A DNA stretch of 56,145 nt, taken from sequence record PZ386950.1. One strand, 5' to 3'. The position numbers and the translations under genes were made by a program. The notes beneath the pieces were generated by a model. That model did no database searches, was not told the DNA's origin, and worked only from the letters and a program-made list of their open reading frames with translations. Below are positions 3,875 through 32,131 of the stretch, in pieces (within the stretch, counting starts at the first letter, position 1; every line of letters starts with the position of its first letter). Source of the DNA: a phage.

Positions 3875-5230
3875 ATGGCTGATCAACAATTCGAACAACT
3901 AGCCGTTGCCGGGTACAGTCGAACAGGCAACCAGGTAAACGACGATTTCCTTCCTAAGCTGAACGGTAAACAAGGCCGTCGTATTCTTCGTCAGATGGCT
4001 GAGAACGACGAAACGATCGGTGGTGTACTGTTTGCCATGAGCAGTGTTTATCGTTCTGTACAGTGGATTTTTGACCCGTCTGACAAAGATGATCCAGAAG
4101 CTATCCGTTATTCAGAATGGTTACAGGACGCTATTGAAAATAAAATGGGTGATCCGCGTGGTGCACTCCCGGATGATACCTGGTCCGCGTTCGTTCAGAC
4201 ATGGACAGACGTTGATGTATTCGGCTGGGGTTGGTATGACATTTGGGTGAAAGACCTTGATGATGGCACGGTGGGTATTGCCCGTCTGGTTCCTGTAGCA
4301 CCTGAAACGCTTGCTGGATGGGATATTGAAGAACCGACAGGTTATGTTCGTGGTATTTATCAACGTTCACCTAACCAGGGTACAACGACGTTAATCACGC
4401 GTGACCGTTCGCTTCATTTGATTTCAAGTCCGAATAAAGGTAACCCGGAAGGTTTATCACTGCTGCGCACAGCTTATCGCCCGTGGTACTACAAAAAAGT
4501 GAATATGGAAATCGAATCCATACTTGCCGAACGTGGTACAGGGTTCCCGGTAATTACTGTTAACGCAGATATTAAAAAAGCGGCTAATGATCCTAATGTT
4601 CCTGAACAACAGCGTCAGGCAGCACAGGCGATGATTGATAACTATGAAAACATCGTCGCTAATATCAAACGCAATGAACAATCAGGACTGGTGATTTATT
4701 CTAAACCGTATATCACGGGTTATGATAACGAAACAGGTGTTACCACGTATGGTGGTGAACAACAGGTGAAACTGGAATTCGTTACACCTAACCAGACCAG
4801 TTCTGTGGATATTGACCGGACGATTAAACGTCTGGATACCAGTATTGCCCGTGCGTTACTGGCAGACTTTTTATTTTTTGGCAGTTCGGGTAATACAAGT
4901 AATGGTGCTAACCTGGGTAATCGTACTGAACTGTGGATCCGCGCAATGCAATCACGTATTGATAGTATTGTAGAATGTGTTAATCGTCAGTTGATACCGC
5001 AGTTATGGTCGTTAAACGCATTTCCTGATGAATACCGCCCGTCGATTCGCGCCGGGTCAATCAGTAAAGACAGTATCGAAACGTTGACTACGGCACTTGC
5101 TCGTTTAGCACAAGCTGGTGCGCCTGTATTCCCGGATCCAGACCTTCAGGAATACGTATATAAAGAGGCGGGTCTACCTATTACGGGGATTGATAAAGCC
5201 GGAGACGGATTACCGTCTATTGACGACTGA
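3875..5230 (+). CDS. portal protein
   Basis: 451-aa ORF directly downstream of terminase region; size, acidic C-terminus and position typical of portal proteins. Confidence 0.8.
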   Translation: MADQQFEQLAVAGYSRTGNQVNDDFLPKLNGKQGRRILRQMAENDETIGGVLFAMSSVYRSVQWIFDPSDKDDPEAIRYSEWLQDAIENKMGDPRGALPDDTWSAFVQTWTDVDVFGWGWYDIWVKDLDDGTVGIARLVPVAPETLAGWDIEEPTGYVRGIYQRSPNQGTTTLITRDRSLHLISSPNKGNPEGLSLLRTAYRPWYYKKVNMEIESILAERGTGFPVITVNADIKKAANDPNVPEQQRQAAQAMIDNYENIVANIKRNEQSGLVIYSKPYITGYDNETGVTTYGGEQQVKLEFVTPNQTSSVDIDRTIKRLDTSIARALLADFLFFGSSGNTSNGANLGNRTELWIRAMQSRIDSIVECVNRQLIPQLWSLNAFPDEYRPSIRAGSISKDSIETLTTALARLAQAGAPVFPDPDLQEYVYKEAGLPITGIDKAGDGLPSIDD

Positions 5231-23697: not shown

Positions 23698-24200
23698 AAG
23701 ACGAACTGCGTGAATTATTAACGGTCGCAACAACTGGTAAAGGTGTTGTTGACGGTGTGAAACTGAATCATAGTTCATGGCCTAATCCGCTATACATCAC
23801 CAGTATTTATCCGGGATTTATCGCTGTACATGAAGACGGTAAGGAATATGAGTACGAATACGTTCCGATGTCCGTCAAGAAGGCGAATAAACAAAACGAT
23901 TTATCACAGGATTATTCATTCACCATTCAGGATCTGAATGAAGTTGTCGGTGTATATCTGGACTTAATTCCGCTTGACAGTAATGAAAAACCATCTGTTG
24001 AGTTACGAACATTTGTTTACCGTGAAGATGGTTCCATGTCTGATATTCAGGATGGGCCATATCTTCTGGAATCTGGTGACATTACTACCGAACCACAGGG
24101 TTGTACGTTCACAGCATCACCACCTATTACAAACTTCGCCGGGACAGGTGAATTATATACGTTCGAACGTTTTCCTACATTGCTGGCGTATGCAACATGA
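23694..24200 (+). CDS. minor tail protein
   Basis: ATG 23694 in ATGA overlap. Confidence 0.5.
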   Translation: MKDELRELLTVATTGKGVVDGVKLNHSSWPNPLYITSIYPGFIAVHEDGKEYEYEYVPMSVKKANKQNDLSQDYSFTIQDLNEVVGVYLDLIPLDSNEKPSVELRTFVYREDGSMSDIQDGPYLLESGDITTEPQGCTFTASPPITNFAGTGELYTFERFPTLLAYAT

Positions 24201-24556
24201 TCGGTGATCGCTACGATATTGATAAATGGAATTGTACACACGAGGTCAGTCAGTGGTATCAGGTGCACAATTACCCACACGTATTGAAAACTGTTTCAGG
24301 TGATGAATGGGATATTGCGTTTGTCAGATGGATGCGAAAACGTTTTTCACCAATTACCACACCGGAACAAGGCGCGCTTGTACTGATGAAGAACCGATAT
24401 TCAGGCGGTTTTCATGTCGGCGTGTGGGATTGTGGAATGGTTCATCATTGTTATCAGCCACCTGGTGATTCACCAGGACAGACAATCAGATCACCTTTAA
24501 GTATAATCAAGACAGCACATAAAGAAATCACGTTCTGGAGAATGAAAAGTGTCTAA
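24197..24556 (+). CDS. tail protein with Cys/His peptidase-like motif
   Basis: 119 aa with conserved Cys and His spacing. Confidence 0.45.
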   Translation: MIGDRYDIDKWNCTHEVSQWYQVHNYPHVLKTVSGDEWDIAFVRWMRKRFSPITTPEQGALVLMKNRYSGGFHVGVWDCGMVHHCYQPPGDSPGQTIRSPLSIIKTAHKEITFWRMKSV

Positions 24557-27080
24557 AGTCATTTATCACACTAATCCTGTTGAACACGCGGATAACGTTG
24601 ACTTTGGTGAATGGATGCTGAAACGCTGGCCCGTGGGTACAGTTCGTCCGCGTGGGTTACTGATTTATAAAAACGACGAAAACATTACCCAGAAATGGGT
24701 CACTGACCCCAGCGTATTAACTGATCCTGATGCTGTTTATCACATTTATGAATTACCAAAAGGTGGGGTGGTTAGTGCAATAACGAAAGTTATTAGCACA
24801 ATTTTAAACCCCGTTTTAAAATTGTTCATGCCGAATACCAGTGCGTCGGCTAATCTTAAGAACTCACGTTCAGCGTCGTCTAACAACGCGCTTCAGGGGC
24901 GTACTAATGCTTCACGACCGGGTGAACGTATTTCTGATATCCGCGGTCGTGTACTGGCATATCCTGACCTGTTAATGGACTACCGAATCTTCATTGACCG
25001 AACAGAATATGAAGTTCAGTTTCTGTGTCTGGGTGCTGGTGAATACGAAGTCGAAGATGTTCGTGATGGTATTACACCTGCTGTAAATATCAGCGGTGAA
25101 AAATTAGACTTTTATAAAAAAGGTAATGCACCAGGGTATGGTTCTCCATATATGAATATCGGTGGTGCAATTGATATTAACACTTTTCCGATCATGGTTG
25201 CTAAGTCATCGAACGAAGCAGACGGATCTGAAGTCAAGCCACCAAACTATGCTGATATCAGCAAAGCGAGTTTTAAAATTTACAGCACTGGTGAAATTGA
25301 CACTATGATTTCCAGTGATGATAACACTACGGTTGACTGGTCGGAACGTGCACCAATCGGTAGTAAAATTCGTTTATCACAATTTTACAGTTTTACACCT
25401 AATACTTTACCGTTAAACACGTATGTACGTAATGACCTATCCGGTGAATATGATGTTATTTATGCAGGTGAGAATACGTTAATCATTGATACTACTGGTC
25501 GTGAAGGTTGGGATGCTCTGTCTGAAAGTGGTCAGGCTGCGTATACACAGGCTTACTTGCGAAATGACGGTTACTGGGAATTTGAAACCACTGAAGGAAG
25601 TGGAAGTTTTTTATACAAATTTTCACCATCTCTTGACAGTACTATGCCGTATATTGTCGGACCTTATCTGATCGATAGTGCGGATAAGCTGATGATCAAC
25701 TTGTATGCGCAGAACGGTGTGTATAAAACTGATGGTGATATTTATCCGTTTACCTGTGATTTCCAGGTAGTGTTGTCAGATCCTAATGGTGTGAAAGCGA
25801 ATGTGACACACTCTATGTCTGTTCGTGGTCGTTATACAGAAGCCGTAGGTAATTCATTAATCGTGGACAACCCTTTTGATGGTCCTGTTAACGTGTCTGT
25901 AAGACGACTATCAAATACAGACAAAGATTTCGAAGGATCTGTTGTTGACAACATTAAGTGGCGCGATTTATACGCTATCACGAACGTTTCTCCGCGTTCC
26001 TATGGTGATGTGACATTGATCCATACAGTAACGAAAGCAACAAACGCGGCACTGAAACAAAAAGAACGTAAGCTAAATATGATTGCAACACGTGTGTATA
26101 ACGGTGTTGCAAGTAGTAATTTTGCAGATGTTGCAATGTCAATGCACACAGATTCTTTATTTGGTCGTCGCACATTAGACACTATTGATCGTGATGCTTT
26201 ATATGCTGTTCAGGCACAACTTCTTGAATATTTTGGTGACCAACGAGCAATTGAGGTTGGCTATACATTCGATAACAACAGTACGACGTACGAAGAAGGA
26301 TTAGACATCATCTGTAACACGGTGAATGTTAAACCATATCAGATTGGTAGTGTATTATATTTCTGGCCCGAATTACCACAGGATCAGTCAGCAATGCAAT
26401 TTGGTCACGCGTTTAAAATTCCTGACAGTGATAAACGCACACGTTCTTTTGCACCACCTAAAGAATACACTGGTGTTCAGGTTAAATACTTCGACCACGA
26501 TGAAAAATCATATTTATACGTAACTAAAGGTGAAGAAACAAACCTTAATAAGATAGACCTTGTTGCGTGTCAGTCGAGATATCTGGCTACAATTCGCGCT
26601 AATCGTGAAATGAATAAACTACGTTATCAGCGTATTACGCACGAATGCACCGCGCTTAGTATCGGGTTGCAGGCTACCCCAGGAATGCGAGTGGATATGA
26701 TTGATAATACGAGAATGAAACAACATGAAGGAGTGATCATCGATGTTGATGGTTTAGTACTGACATTAAGTGACCCTGTTGATTTTGTTACAGGTAATAC
26801 ATATTCGATCACGATAACCGGGCGTTTAGGTACGCTTGAAAACATCCCTGTTTCACCGGGCGATGATGAATTTACAGTTATTTTACAATCTGCACCAACG
26901 GAAGAAATTTACACAGGATGGTTACAGGATCGGACAAGTTATATTATCAGAACAGATGATGAACGTAGTAAGCTGGCGATGCTGGTACAGACTATGGAAC
27001 CATCAGGCGCTGATAACAACTATCAGGTGGGTTTAACGTGCATCAATTACGATGCACGTTATTATCAAGATGACGTTTAA
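24549..27080 (+). CDS. tail tip / host-specificity protein
   Basis: 843-aa ORF after minor tail genes; GTG start preceded by GGAGAA. Confidence 0.6.
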   Translation: MSKVIYHTNPVEHADNVDFGEWMLKRWPVGTVRPRGLLIYKNDENITQKWVTDPSVLTDPDAVYHIYELPKGGVVSAITKVISTILNPVLKLFMPNTSASANLKNSRSASSNNALQGRTNASRPGERISDIRGRVLAYPDLLMDYRIFIDRTEYEVQFLCLGAGEYEVEDVRDGITPAVNISGEKLDFYKKGNAPGYGSPYMNIGGAIDINTFPIMVAKSSNEADGSEVKPPNYADISKASFKIYSTGEIDTMISSDDNTTVDWSERAPIGSKIRLSQFYSFTPNTLPLNTYVRNDLSGEYDVIYAGENTLIIDTTGREGWDALSESGQAAYTQAYLRNDGYWEFETTEGSGSFLYKFSPSLDSTMPYIVGPYLIDSADKLMINLYAQNGVYKTDGDIYPFTCDFQVVLSDPNGVKANVTHSMSVRGRYTEAVGNSLIVDNPFDGPVNVSVRRLSNTDKDFEGSVVDNIKWRDLYAITNVSPRSYGDVTLIHTVTKATNAALKQKERKLNMIATRVYNGVASSNFADVAMSMHTDSLFGRRTLDTIDRDALYAVQAQLLEYFGDQRAIEVGYTFDNNSTTYEEGLDIICNTVNVKPYQIGSVLYFWPELPQDQSAMQFGHAFKIPDSDKRTRSFAPPKEYTGVQVKYFDHDEKSYLYVTKGEETNLNKIDLVACQSRYLATIRANREMNKLRYQRITHECTALSIGLQATPGMRVDMIDNTRMKQHEGVIIDVDGLVLTLSDPVDFVTGNTYSITITGRLGTLENIPVSPGDDEFTVILQSAPTEEIYTGWLQDRTSYIIRTDDERSKLAMLVQTMEPSGADNNYQVGLTCINYDARYYQDDV

Positions 27081-27081
27081 T

Positions 27082-27345
27082 CTAAACATCATCTTCAACA
27101 GCGCTGGAAAATTTTTCCAGCGTTTTTAAATAATTATAAGCCTGAATAAAAGGGTTATCCCCCATAATGTCATAAGGGCATTCGTACTGTTCTGAATACA
27201 ACTCTTCTATCTCTTCTTTATTGGCAAAAAATCTAACGCCAAAAGATATAATTTGTTTATCACGAATGATGGCTGGCATGTTAACCCTGGCCACGCCCTG
27301 TGCCACGGTAAGACCACGAAAACTGATAGGTAAAATCAACGCCAT
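27082..27345 (-). CDS. putative tail fiber assembly/chaperone protein
   Basis: ATG 27345 with GGGGG RBS directly downstream of tail fiber gene on same strand. Confidence 0.4.
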   Translation of the reverse strand: MALILPISFRGLTVAQGVARVNMPAIIRDKQIISFGVRFFANKEEIEELYSEQYECPYDIMGDNPFIQAYNYLKTLEKFSSAVEDDV

Positions 27346-27356
27346 AAATCCCCCTA

Positions 27357-29783
27357 TTACCACGCAGCGACGGCAACGCGCCGCCATGTGTTAGTTGCTG
27401 TGCAAATATAAAGATAAGAGCCATCAGAAGCCCATTGCCCCTCCTGGCCTCCAGACGTTGCTGTTGCTGGGACTGGCACCTTCATGGAAAAAATATACCC
27501 ATCTGTAGCAGAAGCAGGCTCTGAACCTGGTTTATATAGAATCCCTACTGAGCTTTTGAAAAGCCAGCCTTGCCCCCACTGAATTCTACGTCTGTCGTAT
27601 GCTGGCTGTGTCGATGACTTTGTTCCAATAGCAAGATCGCTCTCTATTTTATACGGACCGGAATAGCTGCCAATGTTAATTGCGTTTTTAAGGTCGTGCG
27701 GGCCGATACAAATGCGACCAGAAACGTTGGAAGTCGACGTGTTAACGGAATAAGCAAGTCCGGGAAAGTCTTTAAGGTTTAAGACATCAAGATTGTTGAT
27801 GTTCTGAAAATACAGTGTTGTATCCGTCGAGACGGTTGAATAGTTAACGCCATCAATAATCCGCACGTCGTTGCCGACCGTTACCGCCCACGGGCCTGAT
27901 GCCGACCCCGCAATACTAATACACCGCCCCGCGTTTTTATCGTCGGCTTTGCGGACCGTGGGAATGAGGTCCAGATACTGAGGCCCGGTTACCTGTATGA
28001 AATTTGCGTCTACGGTCATTTTCGACCGGATAGGGTTTCGAATAAAAACACCAAAGTCGCAAGTCATTTCGGCAGTAAAATTAACAAGTTCATACAAACG
28101 GCTATCCGCGCCGCCGTGTGAGTTTGATAACGAACCGCCTTTAATACCATCAAGCCAGATCCCCAGACCGCCACGGTCCTTCCCTGTGCTTATCCCGGAG
28201 AAATGCACATTACGGCCCCAGTTGTAATATGGGGTGAAGAGGAAGTCTACATAGAAGCCGTTAATGGATTGTGACCCTGAAGAGATCCCGTAGTCGGTGG
28301 CGACCACGCCATCAACCGTACACTCGATAGGACTCATCATCTTAAATGCGGCGTTGTCCGTTGTGCCGGTAGCGCCAGACGTTACGATATTGTCAATCGT
28401 CATCCTGCGAGCATAAGTGAAGCTCATCGCGCTCGGAGTGGATGCCGTAACGATACAGTCCCCGAAGTTACCTGCGTAAGAGTAATCGTTAATGCTTCGA
28501 TTAAACCGGCAGCCTTTCACCTGCAGCGACGTTATCGCCCTGAGCTGTAAAACGTCAAAATTCGCATTCAGAATATTAAGTTTATTAAGGAACGCGGCGG
28601 GTACGATAAACGGATCGCCAAAGGCGGTAACCAGAGGGTCCTCTAAAACGAGCTGGGAAGCGCTGGCGGATTTAACCCGGGAATGTTCAAAATAGACGGT
28701 CCCGGAGTTAACGGAGTCTGTTCCGGTAATGTTTTCGAAGCGTACAACGTCACCAGCTGAAAATGCGCTGAAATCGCCGGTGATAGTTGTCGTCCCTACC
28801 GCCAGGGTGCCAGAGTATTTTACAAAAGTAGTTTTACTAATCACAAATTTATCAAAGGCAAAACGTAGCCCATCGGCGATAACCAATTGTGAAGAGTCAG
28901 CTGAAACTACAGTTGAGAAATGTATACCAATCTGATTTATACTACCATTGAATGCGGTATCTGCGGCTAGTTCAATTACAATCTTATCACCGGGACTATA
29001 CGCAGAAAAATTACCAGGAAAAGTTGTAGTACCTACAGCATAAGTTGTATAATCATTAACAGTACCAACAGTTACAGAATTAGTACGAGTTTTTAATATA
29101 TCGCCTTTTATGACAACAAAACCGCTGATAACACCAGGACCAGTTAGGTTAAGACCACCTCTGGAAAATACAAGGCCGTCCCAATTGACGTTAATATCTA
29201 CTACTGCTTGCTTATTGTTATCTATGCAGTAATTTAAAAAAGTGGTCGCTAATGCAGCCTCGTTTCCAGAACCTGTAAAGCCAAAAGATGACGCTGTAAC
29301 AGACGATAACCCGCCAACCATCATAGCACCGTTTACTGATGCCAGTTCCTGGCGTAAATTAGCATCACCAACACTCACCATATGAGTAACATCAGTTGCC
29401 CACGATGTACTATTTGTACCCGTGGTTGTGTATGGTGGAGTTGTGGCCGCGTTTAATCGCCAGAATTCATTCTGATAACGAATAATCTGGTTACGAGCTG
29501 CAATTGTGTATGGTCCGTTTTCATAATCTCCCAGGAACTGATACCCAGAATTTAAAAGGAATTGCTGAAAACGTGCTTCTTTATCAGCCTGAGCATCCTG
29601 AAACTGAGTCTCCATACCATCAAGTGTCAAGTTCGTTACTTGCTCACCGCGAATGGTATCAGTTACAGTTAACGCATGTGCACCGTTAGCATCTTTACTT
29701 TTAGCCACATGTTCTATGTGCTGGACTGCTTGTTTACCTGTTTTAAGGTCGTCAGCACTGATATAATCACTGCAGTTAGCCAT
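27357..29783 (-). CDS. tail fiber / tailspike protein
   Basis: 808-aa ORF; G/T/S/N-rich repetitive central region consistent with beta-helix; encoded opposite to the rest of the tail module. Confidence 0.65.
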   Translation of the reverse strand: MANCSDYISADDLKTGKQAVQHIEHVAKSKDANGAHALTVTDTIRGEQVTNLTLDGMETQFQDAQADKEARFQQFLLNSGYQFLGDYENGPYTIAARNQIIRYQNEFWRLNAATTPPYTTTGTNSTSWATDVTHMVSVGDANLRQELASVNGAMMVGGLSSVTASSFGFTGSGNEAALATTFLNYCIDNNKQAVVDINVNWDGLVFSRGGLNLTGPGVISGFVVIKGDILKTRTNSVTVGTVNDYTTYAVGTTTFPGNFSAYSPGDKIVIELAADTAFNGSINQIGIHFSTVVSADSSQLVIADGLRFAFDKFVISKTTFVKYSGTLAVGTTTITGDFSAFSAGDVVRFENITGTDSVNSGTVYFEHSRVKSASASQLVLEDPLVTAFGDPFIVPAAFLNKLNILNANFDVLQLRAITSLQVKGCRFNRSINDYSYAGNFGDCIVTASTPSAMSFTYARRMTIDNIVTSGATGTTDNAAFKMMSPIECTVDGVVATDYGISSGSQSINGFYVDFLFTPYYNWGRNVHFSGISTGKDRGGLGIWLDGIKGGSLSNSHGGADSRLYELVNFTAEMTCDFGVFIRNPIRSKMTVDANFIQVTGPQYLDLIPTVRKADDKNAGRCISIAGSASGPWAVTVGNDVRIIDGVNYSTVSTDTTLYFQNINNLDVLNLKDFPGLAYSVNTSTSNVSGRICIGPHDLKNAINIGSYSGPYKIESDLAIGTKSSTQPAYDRRRIQWGQGWLFKSSVGILYKPGSEPASATDGYIFSMKVPVPATATSGGQEGQWASDGSYLYICTATNTWRRVAVAAW

Positions 29784-29810
29784 CTTTTAACCCTCGTGGG
29801 AGTGTGAACA

Positions 29811-30134
29811 ATGTCCGATAATCCGGTATTGAAATATTGGCCTATTATAACATTTATTGCAACGGGTGCGGTAGGTTTTGGCGTACTCCAGCAACAGGTT
29901 AACGCAACGGCTAAAGATGTAGCTGACGCAAAAGTAAACGCCACCAACGCCTATAACCTCGCAAAACGTATTGAATCTCGTGTTGATGTACACGATGTAA
30001 AGTTAGAGTATCAGGCTGTTCAAAATACTCAAATCCTTTCCAGCGTCAAAGAACTTACCCAGTCTACTAACGATCTAAAAGTCGTTATTGAAGGTCTTAA
30101 AAATCAACGTCGTACAGAAGGTGAAACAAGATGA
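29811..30134 (+). CDS. holin-like protein (single TM helix plus coiled coil)
   Basis: N-terminal hydrophobic helix WPIITFIATGAVGFGVL; ATGA overlap with endolysin gene. Confidence 0.45.
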   Translation: MSDNPVLKYWPIITFIATGAVGFGVLQQQVNATAKDVADAKVNATNAYNLAKRIESRVDVHDVKLEYQAVQNTQILSSVKELTQSTNDLKVVIEGLKNQRRTEGETR

Positions 30135-30691
30135 GCACAGGCAACGTATCTGTTGATAAAATCATTGATACAACTATTGGTCACGAAGGAGGTTATTCAA
30201 ATAATAGCGCCGATCGTGGTGGTGCAACAATGTGGGGCATTACTGAGACTGTAGCACGTGCACACGGATACAAAGGTGATATGCGTTTATTACCACGGGC
30301 AACCGCTGTAAGCATTTACGAGGCTGATTACTGGTTTAGTCCTCGTTTCGATCTGGTACAACAAGTTTCACCGCTAATTGCCGCTGAACTTTTTGATACT
30401 GGTGTTAACATGGGGCCATCAGTTCCGTGCAAGTTTTTTCAACGGTGGCTGAATGTCTTCAATAATCAGCAAAAACTTTACCCTGATTTGATCGCAGACG
30501 GTCAAATCGGACCGCGAACTATTAATGCTCTTAAACAGTATTTAACCACCCGTGGTAAAGATGCTGAAAAAGTCATGGTGCGTGCGTTGAACTGTTCACA
30601 AGGTAATCGTTATCTGGAACTGTCAGAGGCACGGGAAGCGAATGAAACGTTTACTTATGGTTGGTTACTTAATCGCGTGGGGTCACTCTGA
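30131..30691 (+). CDS. endolysin (GH108-like N-terminal domain with peptidoglycan-binding C-terminal domain)
   Basis: GHEGGYSNNSADRGGATMWGIT matches the GH108 motif E-G-G-Y...D-x-G-G-x-T-x-x-G-I as I recall it. Confidence 0.75.
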   Translation: MSTGNVSVDKIIDTTIGHEGGYSNNSADRGGATMWGITETVARAHGYKGDMRLLPRATAVSIYEADYWFSPRFDLVQQVSPLIAAELFDTGVNMGPSVPCKFFQRWLNVFNNQQKLYPDLIADGQIGPRTINALKQYLTTRGKDAEKVMVRALNCSQGNRYLELSEAREANETFTYGWLLNRVGSL

Positions 30692-30933
30692 TGGATATGT
30701 TCAGCATGTTTCGTAACGCAGCGGGTGGTATCTCGTTAAGCCGTGCGCAGGCTGCGCTGGGGTTCCTTGTGGTAACCGGGATCCTGATTTACCAGGCAGT
30801 CGATCAGACATTAGATAACACGGTTCTGTTAACGTACTTCGGTTTTTGTATCGGTCAGTATGTTGGCGCTAAGAAAATTGCCGTTGATAAGGATATCAAA
30901 GAACAGAAAATTGATGCGGGGTTAAACCCATGA
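30691..30933 (+). CDS. holin (two TM helices)
   Basis: 80 aa with two hydrophobic helices and charged C-terminus. Confidence 0.55.
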   Translation: MDMFSMFRNAAGGISLSRAQAALGFLVVTGILIYQAVDQTLDNTVLLTYFGFCIGQYVGAKKIAVDKDIKEQKIDAGLNP

Positions 30934-31328
30934 CTATTCGTAGCATTGCCATTACAGCGGTCGCACTTTTACTGGCTTTAGCGGCAGGTGGTATAACCTG
31001 TTACAAGGCTGGATATAAAGCGCGATTGAATGAAGAAAAACAGGAAAAGTTAAATGATGCACAACAGGAACAGTTGCGTTTAAAAGCACAGCAACAGTTG
31101 GCAGATAACGTTTTACGTGGTCTTGCTGACTGGTCACAAAATACTAAAATCGTGGAAATTCGTCATGAAAAAACTAATACTGTTTTTCGTAATGAGTGTC
31201 TTACTCCTGAATATCAGCGCCTGTACAACGAACGAGTTACCGAAGCAGAAAGCCGTTTATCAGGCCGCATTAGTTCAGAAGTGTCAGACCGAAAACCTTC
31301 CACGGCTGAACGGTCTGACAGGAAGTGA
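30930..31328 (+). CDS. i-spanin (Rz-like)
   Basis: N-terminal TM helix then coiled coil; contains nested o-spanin ORF. Confidence 0.65.
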   Translation: MTIRSIAITAVALLLALAAGGITCYKAGYKARLNEEKQEKLNDAQQEQLRLKAQQQLADNVLRGLADWSQNTKIVEIRHEKTNTVFRNECLTPEYQRLYNERVTEAESRLSGRISSEVSDRKPSTAERSDRK

Positions 31329-31413
31329 TTCAACAGATGTTAATGACAAGTGGTTAGATATTTATTTCAAATGTGCAACTATTCACAACGCATTAGTAGA
31401 CAGTCTTCAGTAA
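31165..31413 (+). CDS. o-spanin (Rz1-like lipoprotein), overlapping i-spanin in +1 frame
   Basis: MKKLILFFVMSVLLLNISAC lipobox; ORF starts inside the i-spanin gene and extends past its stop. Confidence 0.7.
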   Translation: MKKLILFFVMSVLLLNISACTTNELPKQKAVYQAALVQKCQTENLPRLNGLTGSDSTDVNDKWLDIYFKCATIHNALVDSLQ

Positions 31414-31626
31414 ATCTTCAACCGATACTTCAATCCACGATGCGGGAACCGGATATTCAGTCCGGTACATGAACAAGGATGTTCCTATCAACCCGTGTGG
31501 ATCTGTTTTAATCCCTCGCATGTTCAACAACGGAAAAAACTGTTCGCGTGTTTGTGGCAATCGTGCAAAGCGTCCTGTCGGGCGTTTAGCAGGATCCATA
31601 GGGTTGAATTCAACGATTGTGGACAT
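31393..31626 (-). CDS. hypothetical protein
   Basis: 77-aa ORF at end of minus-strand replication operon. Confidence 0.45.
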   Translation of the reverse strand: MSTIVEFNPMDPAKRPTGRFARLPQTREQFFPLLNMRGIKTDPHGLIGTSLFMYRTEYPVPASWIEVSVEDLLKTVY

Positions 31627-32131
31627 AACAATAACTCCTGTACGCTTGTCGTTTTATTTTCTGATAGTCGGAAACTTTTACAGATCTCGTTTTACATTCA
31701 CCGATATGATGTGGGTCGAAAACAAACATCACCTGTGAACGGTCATTTCCGCCTGCAGGTAACCCGGTGTCAGGATCTACAAACGCTATACGACCTTTAA
31801 ATACCCATAGTTCTGAACAATGTGTCAGTGCTTTATGAAACCAGTCTGCAGACGTCATAGCGTTCACAAGTAATAACGAACCAGTTCCCTGATAAACAGT
31901 GGTTATTATTTTATTAACCCAGGGGGACGGATCGCTGTACGGTGGGTTACACCAGACGAACCCACCACCATTACTTTGAACAATCGAATGCCAGTCTTTA
32001 TTCAGACTATCAGTGATAAACAACGAACATTTAGCGTTAGAACCATCGGTACACACATCAAGAACAAGTGGGAATTCACGAGAAACATTATCAATAAAAT
32101 CCCACGGTGTTTCCCAGTTGTCTTTAGCCAT
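31610..32131 (-). CDS. dam: DNA N6-adenine methyltransferase (phage Dam-like)
   Basis: FVWCNPPY catalytic motif, WETPWDF N-terminus; trimmed to ATG 32131 (MAKDNWETPW). Confidence 0.8.
   Translation of the reverse strand: MAKDNWETPWDFIDNVSREFPLVLDVCTDGSNAKCSLFITDSLNKDWHSIVQSNGGGFVWCNPPYSDPSPWVNKIITTVYQGTGSLLLVNAMTSADWFHKALTHCSELWVFKGRIAFVDPDTGLPAGGNDRSQVMFVFDPHHIGECKTRSVKVSDYQKIKRQAYRSYCYVHNR

Follow-up and report, generated by a model that had tools for sequence, protein, structure and literature searches.

Positions 27082 to 29783 of the phage genome PZ386950.1 (56,145 nucleotides; the window, which denotes this whole stretch) hold two genes on the minus strand, one encoding a tailspike of 808 amino acids and a small one of 87 codons directly behind it. 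This cassette is most probably the receptor-recognition module of a 9NA-like siphophage, which occupies its ancestral slot in the genome and in which the depolymerase part of the tailspike has been swapped together with the small gene. The genome belongs to the Sashavirus/Nonanavirus group of 9NA-like siphophages. Essentially the same cassette is present in phage PDP46 (PQ783785; L001 4083-6786, genes PDP46_0061 and PDP46_0060), with 98.1% DNA identity to the window over 8 kb in the cassette region. The two phages are relatives and different isolates, because their first 25 kb are only about 96% identical (approximately 96.5% identity over 90% of this part; AVIO78A reaches approximately 96% in the same 25 kb).

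An earlier reading of the sequence alone had placed two minus-strand open reading frames (ORFs) between a plus-strand tail-tip gene and the lysis cassette, and the list of ORFs agrees with it. The 808-amino-acid product was rightly taken for a fiber or tailspike, as the structural comparisons given below indicate. The small downstream ORF is a real gene, but the proposed product of 101 amino acids (27082..27387) results from a start at the first ATG, within the 3' end of the tailspike gene. The homologues all begin with "MAL..." at the ATG at 27345, 11 nucleotides past the tailspike stop codon and behind the Shine-Dalgarno sequence GGGGGA, and the annotation of PDP46 uses the same start; the product therefore has 87 amino acids. 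The cassette consists of the following features:

27357..29783, minus strand: tailspike (receptor-binding protein) gene, 808 amino acids (ORF list; 98.3% identity to the "tail fiber protein" of PDP46; match to 7VUL)
29364..29783, minus strand: N-terminal virion-anchor module of the tailspike, residues ~1-140, of the 9NA-like backbone (protein and DNA identity to Klebsiella 9NA-like phages)
27357..29363, minus strand: exchanged receptor-binding/enzymatic module, residues ~141-808, with two tandem repeats of ~70 amino acids, a predicted right-handed beta-helix and a small C-terminal domain (identity bins, repeat score, phrog_17312)
27346..27356, minus strand: spacer of 11 nucleotides with the GGGGGA Shine-Dalgarno sequence of the small ORF (TAA TAGGGGGATTT ATG)
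27082..27345, minus strand: small partner gene, 87 amino acids, acidic (isoelectric point (pI) 4.5), phrog_18037 family (homologue alignments, ratio of nonsynonymous to synonymous substitution rates (dN/dS), AlphaFold2 (AF2) model, synteny)

The opposite-strand slot is ancestral

A minus-strand tailspike gene between a J-like tail-tip gene and the lysis cassette was found in all eight 9NA-like loci with annotation that were inspected (PDP46, 9NA, Bas82, AVIO78A, Sergei, Kpn BU9 and VLCpiS10a among them). For 9NA, this layout was explicitly stated by Casjens et al. 2014 (PMC4153490). Because the layout is identical in all inspected loci, the orientation of the tailspike gene in 9NA-like phages is ancestral; it was already known and carries no information on acquisition. 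The gp55 locus of 9NA and the corresponding loci of Sasha, Sergei, Bas82 and AVIO78A share with the window the slot, the orientation, the start of the anchor and a hairpin at the convergent junction. About 20 strand-switch blocks were counted in a greedy ORF map of the window, with many short opposite-strand genes among the structural genes, and the virion genes of 9NA are likewise interspersed with many small novel genes (Casjens et al. 2014, PMC4153490).

The sequence-only reading had regarded the convergent orientation as a sign of acquisition, which taken literally means that a recent insertion of foreign DNA between the operons for tail and lysis brought in the entire minus-strand unit together with its orientation. 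The strand switch at both ends of the unit and a sign change of the GC skew across 27-30 kb would fit such an event. However, the tailspike gene has the same place and orientation in every inspected 9NA-like genome, the first ~40 residues of the tailspike are 77-85% identical even to those of 9NA (and of Bas82), the hairpin at the left junction is conserved across the 9NA-like group, and the arrangement was published in 2014 (PMC4153490). A recent insertion of the whole unit is refuted by these comparisons and has to be considered extremely improbable.

Mosaic structure of the tailspike locus

The exchanged part was delimited by blastn of positions 24000-32000 against related genomes and by protein identities in bins of 40 residues. 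From 24000 to 27073, the window shares 91-92% DNA identity with Bas82, Sergei and AVIO78A of the E. coli/Salmonella clade. Between 27082 and ~29330, PDP46 was the sole blastn match among the 9NA-like phages compared, and 73-81% identity was found to a K. pneumoniae prophage (L007), a T1-like metagenomic contig of 47 kb (L011) and the locus L014. The adjoining stretch from 29362 to 31632, which covers the tailspike N-terminus, the holin and the GH108 endolysin, is 89% identical to the Klebsiella phage Kpn BU9; in the E. coli/Salmonella clade, the match is limited to the tailspike N-terminus and the holin (70-77%). At 30674-32000, the window is again similar to Bas82 (87% DNA identity).

On the protein level, residues 1-120 of the tailspike are 92-97% identical to the Klebsiella 9NA-like phages Kpn BU9 and VLCpiS10a. 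Residues 41-120, which share 25-42% identity with 9NA and Bas82, belong to the Klebsiella-clade type. For residues 161-808, the identity per bin to tailspikes of Klebsiella and E. coli prophages and of T1-like phages is 75-100%, which places the junction at approximately residues 141-160. The suggestion of a separately acquired host-range cassette was thus correct in so far as the receptor-binding part and the small ORF have been horizontally exchanged. The exchange did not follow gene boundaries, as the junction lies inside the tailspike (residues ~141-156) and the anchor belongs to the lineage of the backbone. In the comparison with related phages, PDP46 shows the same orientation with high identity throughout (98.1%), as a sibling that carries the same cassette; all other relatives lose similarity exactly inside the cassette. 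Horizontal exchange of the receptor-binding part has been described for 9NA-type tailspikes (PMC4153490). The body of the 9NA tailspike is a P22-type endorhamnosidase, while that of the window resembles the P560 depolymerase (P560dep). Modular tailspikes, reverse orientation and horizontal exchange are textbook knowledge for the 9NA-like group, and the locus is ordinary as a genome feature.

Within the exchanged part, residues 321-440 (28464-28823) are 100% identical to the prophage tailspike of E. coli R18 (L108 8317-10974), the only carrier of the cassette among 5,426 complete E. coli genomes. In comparison to the K. pneumoniae prophage version, identity over residues 321-480 is 47-75% and drops to 47-50% at residues 401-480. 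Since the same region is fully identical to one prophage version and strongly divergent from the other, the alignments suggest a specificity-setting sub-module within the beta-helix region that has itself been exchanged. A single tailspike cluster at 90% identity holds both E. coli and K. pneumoniae prophage copies.

The small gene accompanies the homologous tailspike body in K. pneumoniae prophages, T1-like contigs, L014 and E. coli R18, where it begins 10-13 nucleotides behind the tailspike gene and encodes 87 amino acids (74-79% identity). Tailspike body and small ORF are 78.6% and 79% identical to their counterparts in the K. pneumoniae prophage and 89% and 79% identical to those in the T1-like contigs, respectively; in L014, the adjacent body and small ORF show 83% identity. 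The N-terminal anchors differ among the backbones that carry the homologous body and the small gene. 9NA, Sergei and AVIO78A have no small ORF behind the tailspike gene, in contrast to the window. A match of the cassette to a plasmid was discarded: the entry, labelled incorrectly, is a piece of a chromosomal prophage and has the flanks of L007.

Traces of the flanking DNA were detected in T1-like phages. In the non-coding DNA behind the small gene of the T1-like contig (L011 6265-6311), 47 nucleotides correspond to the 3' terminus of the tail-tip gene in 9NA-like phages, hairpin A included (window 27035-27081). The Drexlerviridae phage P817 (L025 ~4954-5053) carries a tail-tip remnant of 100 nucleotides, 91% identical to AVIO78A, behind its own tail-fibre gene. 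Because these remnants lie downstream of T1-like tailspike or tail-fibre cassettes, they suggest that the cassette was transferred from 9NA-like into T1-like phages together with flanking DNA.

From these data, the following mode of action is proposed. The tailspike gene occupies its inherited position on the opposite strand, flanked by the tail-tip gene and the lysis genes, and its product would be fixed to the tail tip by the lineage-specific anchor (residues ~1-140). Adsorption would begin with the binding and probable cleavage of a glycan on the cell surface by residues ~141-808, a putative trimeric-type right-handed beta-helix depolymerase. Together with the 87-amino-acid gene, the depolymerase part would form a single co-transcribed two-gene unit, which recombination moves among the unrelated backbones of 9NA-like phages, T1-like phages and temperate Klebsiella and E. 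coli prophages. Of the two recombination junctions, one lies in the conserved tailspike linker (LRQELASVNGAMMVGGL region) and one directly behind the small gene, at the hairpin of the convergent terminator. The small protein itself is predicted to be a cytoplasmic, acidic, stand-alone protein composed of a beta-sheet and a helix.

The exchanged body is a predicted depolymerase

No Pfam family matched the tailspike at threshold. A phmmer search against the PDB retrieved the depolymerase of Klebsiella phage P560 (7VUL) for residues 223-558 (E=2.4e-39), and the tailspikes of IME205, SH-KP152226 and P560 are approximately 32% identical to that of the window. The AF2 model of the tailspike has a mean predicted local distance difference test score (pLDDT) of 70, with values of 80-97 over residues ~400-700 and poor values (<50) at residues 1-163. 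In a Foldseek search with this model, 7VUL was again the top match (E=2.5e-31, template modelling (TM) score 0.75), followed by the K1 lyase, LKA1 gp49, AP22 gp54 and KP34p57, which are capsule and O-antigen depolymerases. The depolymerase fold, for which a search had been suggested along with the first reading of this DNA, is thus present in the model. Residues 246-315 and 325-394 form a tandem repeat of ~70 amino acids (local alignment score 117 versus 29 ± 5.6 for shuffled sequences). The repeat module (window 28602-29048) has the pattern GTTT-x-G-x-FSA-x-S-x-GD ... SQLV and is located at the start of the receptor-binding part, where P560dep also aligns. The last 60 residues match phrog_17312. 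Homology and modelled fold characterize the swapped body as a predicted beta-helix polysaccharide depolymerase, which would be enzymatically active. PDP46, whose tailspike is 98.3% identical, forms plaques with halos (PMC12137930).

The repeat region and the beta-helix of the P560 depolymerase are homologous to those of the window (approximately 32% identity, residues 223-558) and share the same predicted fold. However, P560 is a T7-like Przondovirus with a different anchor, and the specificities of P560dep and the window tailspike are certainly different. The reference specificity of P560dep is ambiguous due to conflicting entries. In the DepoCatalog supplements (PMC13385381), "P560dep" is a protein of 802 amino acids listed under KL169 and is tagged 7VUL. 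The 7VUL chain has 663 amino acids and matches the second P560 tailspike (641 amino acids), which was reported to be KL47-specific. In a look-up of K-types, the accessions of the Klebsiella prophage homologues were not found in the DepoCatalog supplements.

The small protein belongs to a large uncharacterized family

The small ORFs of PDP46 and the window are 94.3% identical. In comparisons with five homologues, the dN/dS of the small ORF was 0.07-0.16, and both genes of the cassette are under constraint at the protein level. A profile search of 5.8 billion proteins yielded 163 homologues, all annotated as "hypothetical" and none with a Pfam domain. An exhaustive HMMER search retrieved 2,527 representatives of clusters at 50% identity (618 at E<=1e-10). 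The best 150 of these 2,527 were all stand-alone proteins of 82-118 amino acids, and no fusion to a tailspike was found among them. In an alignment of the window protein and 120 homologues, 92 of the 121 members matched phrog_18037; the match of the window protein itself is weak (E=0.0015). The family members are characterized by a length of ~82-87 amino acids, the N-terminus "MAL", the conserved motif YD..G.NP..QAY.YLK.L and a median pI of 4.9. In the confident AF2 model of the small protein (pLDDT 95.2), an antiparallel sheet of four strands is combined with a helix (residues 65-75) and a last, short strand. Inspection of the sequence revealed neither a signal peptide nor a membrane segment. 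There were no hits in Pfam (E<=0.1), in NCBIfam or in a profile search of the PDB (E<=10), and literature searches on tailspike chaperones or phrog_18037 returned nothing relevant. The family is large, uncharacterized and rare in cultured phages, which is probably the reason for its neglect.

The small gene is located directly behind a tailspike-like gene in N4-like Gamaleyavirus phages (IME11, 24-32N, BaqKoxi) and Burkholderia N4-like phages, as well as in Klebsiella prophages, a Paraburkholderia prophage and an SU10-like podophage contig. Among 80 loci from IMG/VR, approximately 70 have an ORF of 400-900 amino acids on the same strand that ends at most ~50 bp upstream of the small gene. Five loci are cut by the contig end (four of them still show 281-474 amino acids of an upstream ORF), and for the four clear exceptions, one of 400-900 amino acids lies within ~1 kb. 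As a baseline, 14% of all 565 small genes in the same loci have such a neighbor, a figure that includes the family members themselves. The 47 dereplicated upstream proteins comprise 26 with Pect-lyase_RHGA_epim, eight with Beta_helix and five with the N-terminal domain of T7 tail fibres.

Not every gene in this position belongs to the family. By hmmsearch (E>0.1), the small ORFs that follow the tailspike genes of Kpn BU9, VLCpiS10a and Mimir124 do not qualify as remote members, and phage N4 has no homologue at the equivalent position, where the 417-amino-acid gp64 is encoded instead. Other 9NA-like and N4-like phages carry unrelated ORFs of 48-86 amino acids or a gene similar to those for single-stranded DNA-binding proteins behind the tailspike gene (L023 3737-4136; L024 3615-3803; L004 5094-5354; L003 4103-4495). 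The slot behind the tailspike is a general landing place for small accessory genes.

The arrangement resembles that of the fibre chaperones (lambda Tfa/P2 gpG "Caudo_TAP", T4 gp38 and gp57A), whose genes also lie immediately 3' of the receptor-binding gene, are co-transcribed with it and travel with its distal part. The linkage of the small family to tailspike genes is about as strict as in these cases. However, neither these proteins nor the intramolecular Peptidase_S74 domains show similarity to the small protein in sequence, profile or fold, and it has half the size of Tfa-type proteins. As a rule, beta-helix tailspikes fold without a separate chaperone. The label "putative chaperone", which the small ORF had been given on first inspection, is unproven; no known chaperone family or fold was matched.

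PDP46 and infection dependent on a conjugative plasmid

PDP46 is a tailed double-stranded DNA phage that is reported to require the IncF plasmid pFamp in E. coli for plaque formation (PMC12137930). Rough K-12 transconjugants are among its hosts, as are two wild O-types that could not be infected by MS2 (PMC12137930). Its authors did not identify the receptor; they pointed to the divergent tail fibre and found no homologue for its receptor-binding part (PMC12137930). Two plasmid-dependent tailed isolates, PDP46 and FtMidnight, were known to them (PMC12137930). The small ORF is not discussed in that study, to which the present analysis adds the assignment of the tailspike body as a depolymerase, the lineages of donor and recipient and the family of the small ORF. 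Since PDP46 depends on an IncF plasmid and its receptor was not identified, the cassette is the obvious candidate for the determinant of plasmid dependence. Candidate routes from a depolymerase-type spike to this phenotype are a surface structure that depends on the plasmid, a glycan induced by it or a requirement after adsorption.

In one form of this idea, the tailspike, with or without the small protein, recognizes a structure that depends on the IncF plasmid, such as the pilus, another Tra product or a plasmid-induced glycan, for example colanic acid, rather than chromosomal O-antigen or capsule. Almost the same tailspike and small ORF (98.3% and 94% identity) are present in PDP46, which plaques only with pFamp, even on rough K-12 transconjugants (PMC12137930). 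The remaining tail is ~91-92% identical to that of O-antigen-dependent relatives, which makes the cassette the main difference in the adsorption apparatus, and the 90%-identity cluster that spans E. coli and K. pneumoniae prophages is in accordance with a receptor shared across genera. On the other hand, the fold and the closest homologues are those of polysaccharide depolymerases, and PDP46 produces halos. F plasmids are not known to encode a polysaccharide, which also speaks against a plasmid-dependent receptor. Moreover, plasmid dependence might act after adsorption, the region of holin and endolysin differs from the O-antigen-dependent relatives as well, and the phage of the window is not PDP46, as the ~96.5% identity over 90% of the first 25 kb indicates. 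Recognition of an IncF-dependent structure by the cassette is therefore considered possible, though rather unlikely.

Function of the small protein

The small protein might be made together with the tailspike and act on it, in folding, trimerization or attachment, instead of being an independent host-directed gene product; we rate the chance of this at somewhat less than even. Combined with the phenotype of PDP46, a wider proposal can be made. The 87-amino-acid protein would represent a large, unrecognized class of tailspike partners with a fold of its own and more than 2,500 clusters. Beta-helix tailspikes of siphophages, podophages and temperate phages would require such a partner to mature, to attach or to function. 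The cassette would confer IncF-plasmid dependence, and a spike with a depolymerase fold would thereby read a surface feature that depends on the plasmid. This joint proposal is tentative and more doubtful than an action of the small protein on the tailspike as such.

Several results weigh against these proposals. The joint transfer of tailspike and small ORF is also expected from plain physical linkage. The small protein matched no known chaperone family or fold in Pfam, NCBIfam and the PDB profile search. The upstream tailspikes share no C-terminal domain; their C-termini are diverse, and BLASTP between them was negative. As these C-termini and also the bodies are very different, a chaperone would lack a single conserved domain that it could recognize as its client. 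P560dep, the closest solved relative, has no small gene downstream and shows activity after expression in E. coli on its own (PMC9437526).

The small ORF could instead be a hitch-hiking accessory gene ("moron") with an anti-defence, host-takeover or superinfection-related function and no functional tie to the tailspike. Its small size and acidity, which is typical of the family (see the median pI above), are compatible with such a gene, and so is its absence from most 9NA-like relatives, which have other small ORFs or none at this position. The mutually unrelated upstream tailspikes and the functional P560dep without a small gene point in the same direction. Difficult to reconcile with an independent gene, however, is the nearly universal adjacency in podophage, siphophage and prophage backbones from Burkholderia, Klebsiella and marine metagenomes. 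The spacing between the two genes is usually 7-20 nucleotides and leaves no space for a promoter of its own, and further same-strand genes follow the small gene in several loci, so that the position is not simply the end of an operon. A gene without any tie to the tailspike thus appears less plausible than a partner of the tailspike, but it keeps an appreciable share of the probability.

Junctions, transcription and flanking genes

The cassette is bordered by the following features:

24549..27080, plus strand: tail-tip (J-like) gene, left flank of the cassette (phrog_469 tail protein, E=3.5e-217; FNIII-A_GpJ; 91-92% DNA identity to Bas82, Sergei and AVIO78A up to 27073)
27034..27061, no strand assigned: hairpin A with a perfect stem of 11 bp, AACGTGCATC-N6-GATGCACGTT, within the last 45 nucleotides of the tail-tip gene (fold, conservation)
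27067..27095, no strand assigned: hairpin B, in which the ...DDV-stop ends of the two convergent genes pair in a stem of 13 bp; covers the stop codons 27078-27080 and 27082-27084
29784..29810, no strand assigned: gap of 27 bp between the divergent start codons of tailspike and holin, with overlapping ribosome-binding sequences (read from the sequence)
29811..31328, plus strand: lysis cassette flank with holin, GH108 endolysin, small membrane protein and i-spanin (89% DNA identity to Kpn BU9, continuous with the N-terminal module of the tailspike)

The stop codons of the tail-tip gene and the small ORF are one nucleotide apart (27080, 27082). Both proteins end with ...DDV-stop on opposite strands, which results in an inverted repeat of 13 bp over both stop codons. 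Hairpin A, located where the two transcription units converge, is kept in 25 of 25 matching 9NA-like records and is annotated as "terminator" in Sasha, Sergei, Solent and AVIO78A. The fold of the convergent junction region is considerably more stable than that of shuffled sequences (z = -6.9 on the plus strand and -9.5 on the minus strand).

At the other end, the Shine-Dalgarno sequences of tailspike and holin overlap in the 27-bp gap (CCCTCGTGGGAG). Because this gap is too short for two promoters, the promoters of tailspike and holin must presumably each lie inside a neighboring gene. Each of the divergent transcripts would then start inside the other unit and run antisense to it, which could couple tailspike expression and the timing of lysis. 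In a scan for promoters and terminators, sites were no more numerous than in shuffled sequence.

The holin gene (29811-30134, plus strand, phrog_24402) is followed by the endolysin gene (30131-30691, plus strand), which encodes 186 amino acids with GH108 and PG_binding_3 domains and has counterparts in Klebsiella 9NA-like phages such as Kpn BU9. In 9NA, Bas82, Sergei and AVIO78A, an unrelated endolysin of ~130 amino acids is found in this slot. As the segment from 29362 to 31632, that is from the tailspike N-terminus to the spanin, is of the Klebsiella-clade type, the lysis cassette is mosaic as well.

Implications

A depolymerase fold and close relatives have now been assigned to the receptor-binding protein of PDP46-type phages. 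The boundaries of the swap (residues ~141-156 of the tailspike and the hairpin at 27034-27061) are defined, which is a prerequisite for the engineering of host range, and the question of the receptor of PDP46-type phages becomes testable via residues ~141-808. If the cassette does confer IncF-plasmid dependence, plasmid-dependent tailed phages would be more common than the two known isolates suggest, given that the cassette also circulates among T1-like phages and Klebsiella and E. coli prophages.

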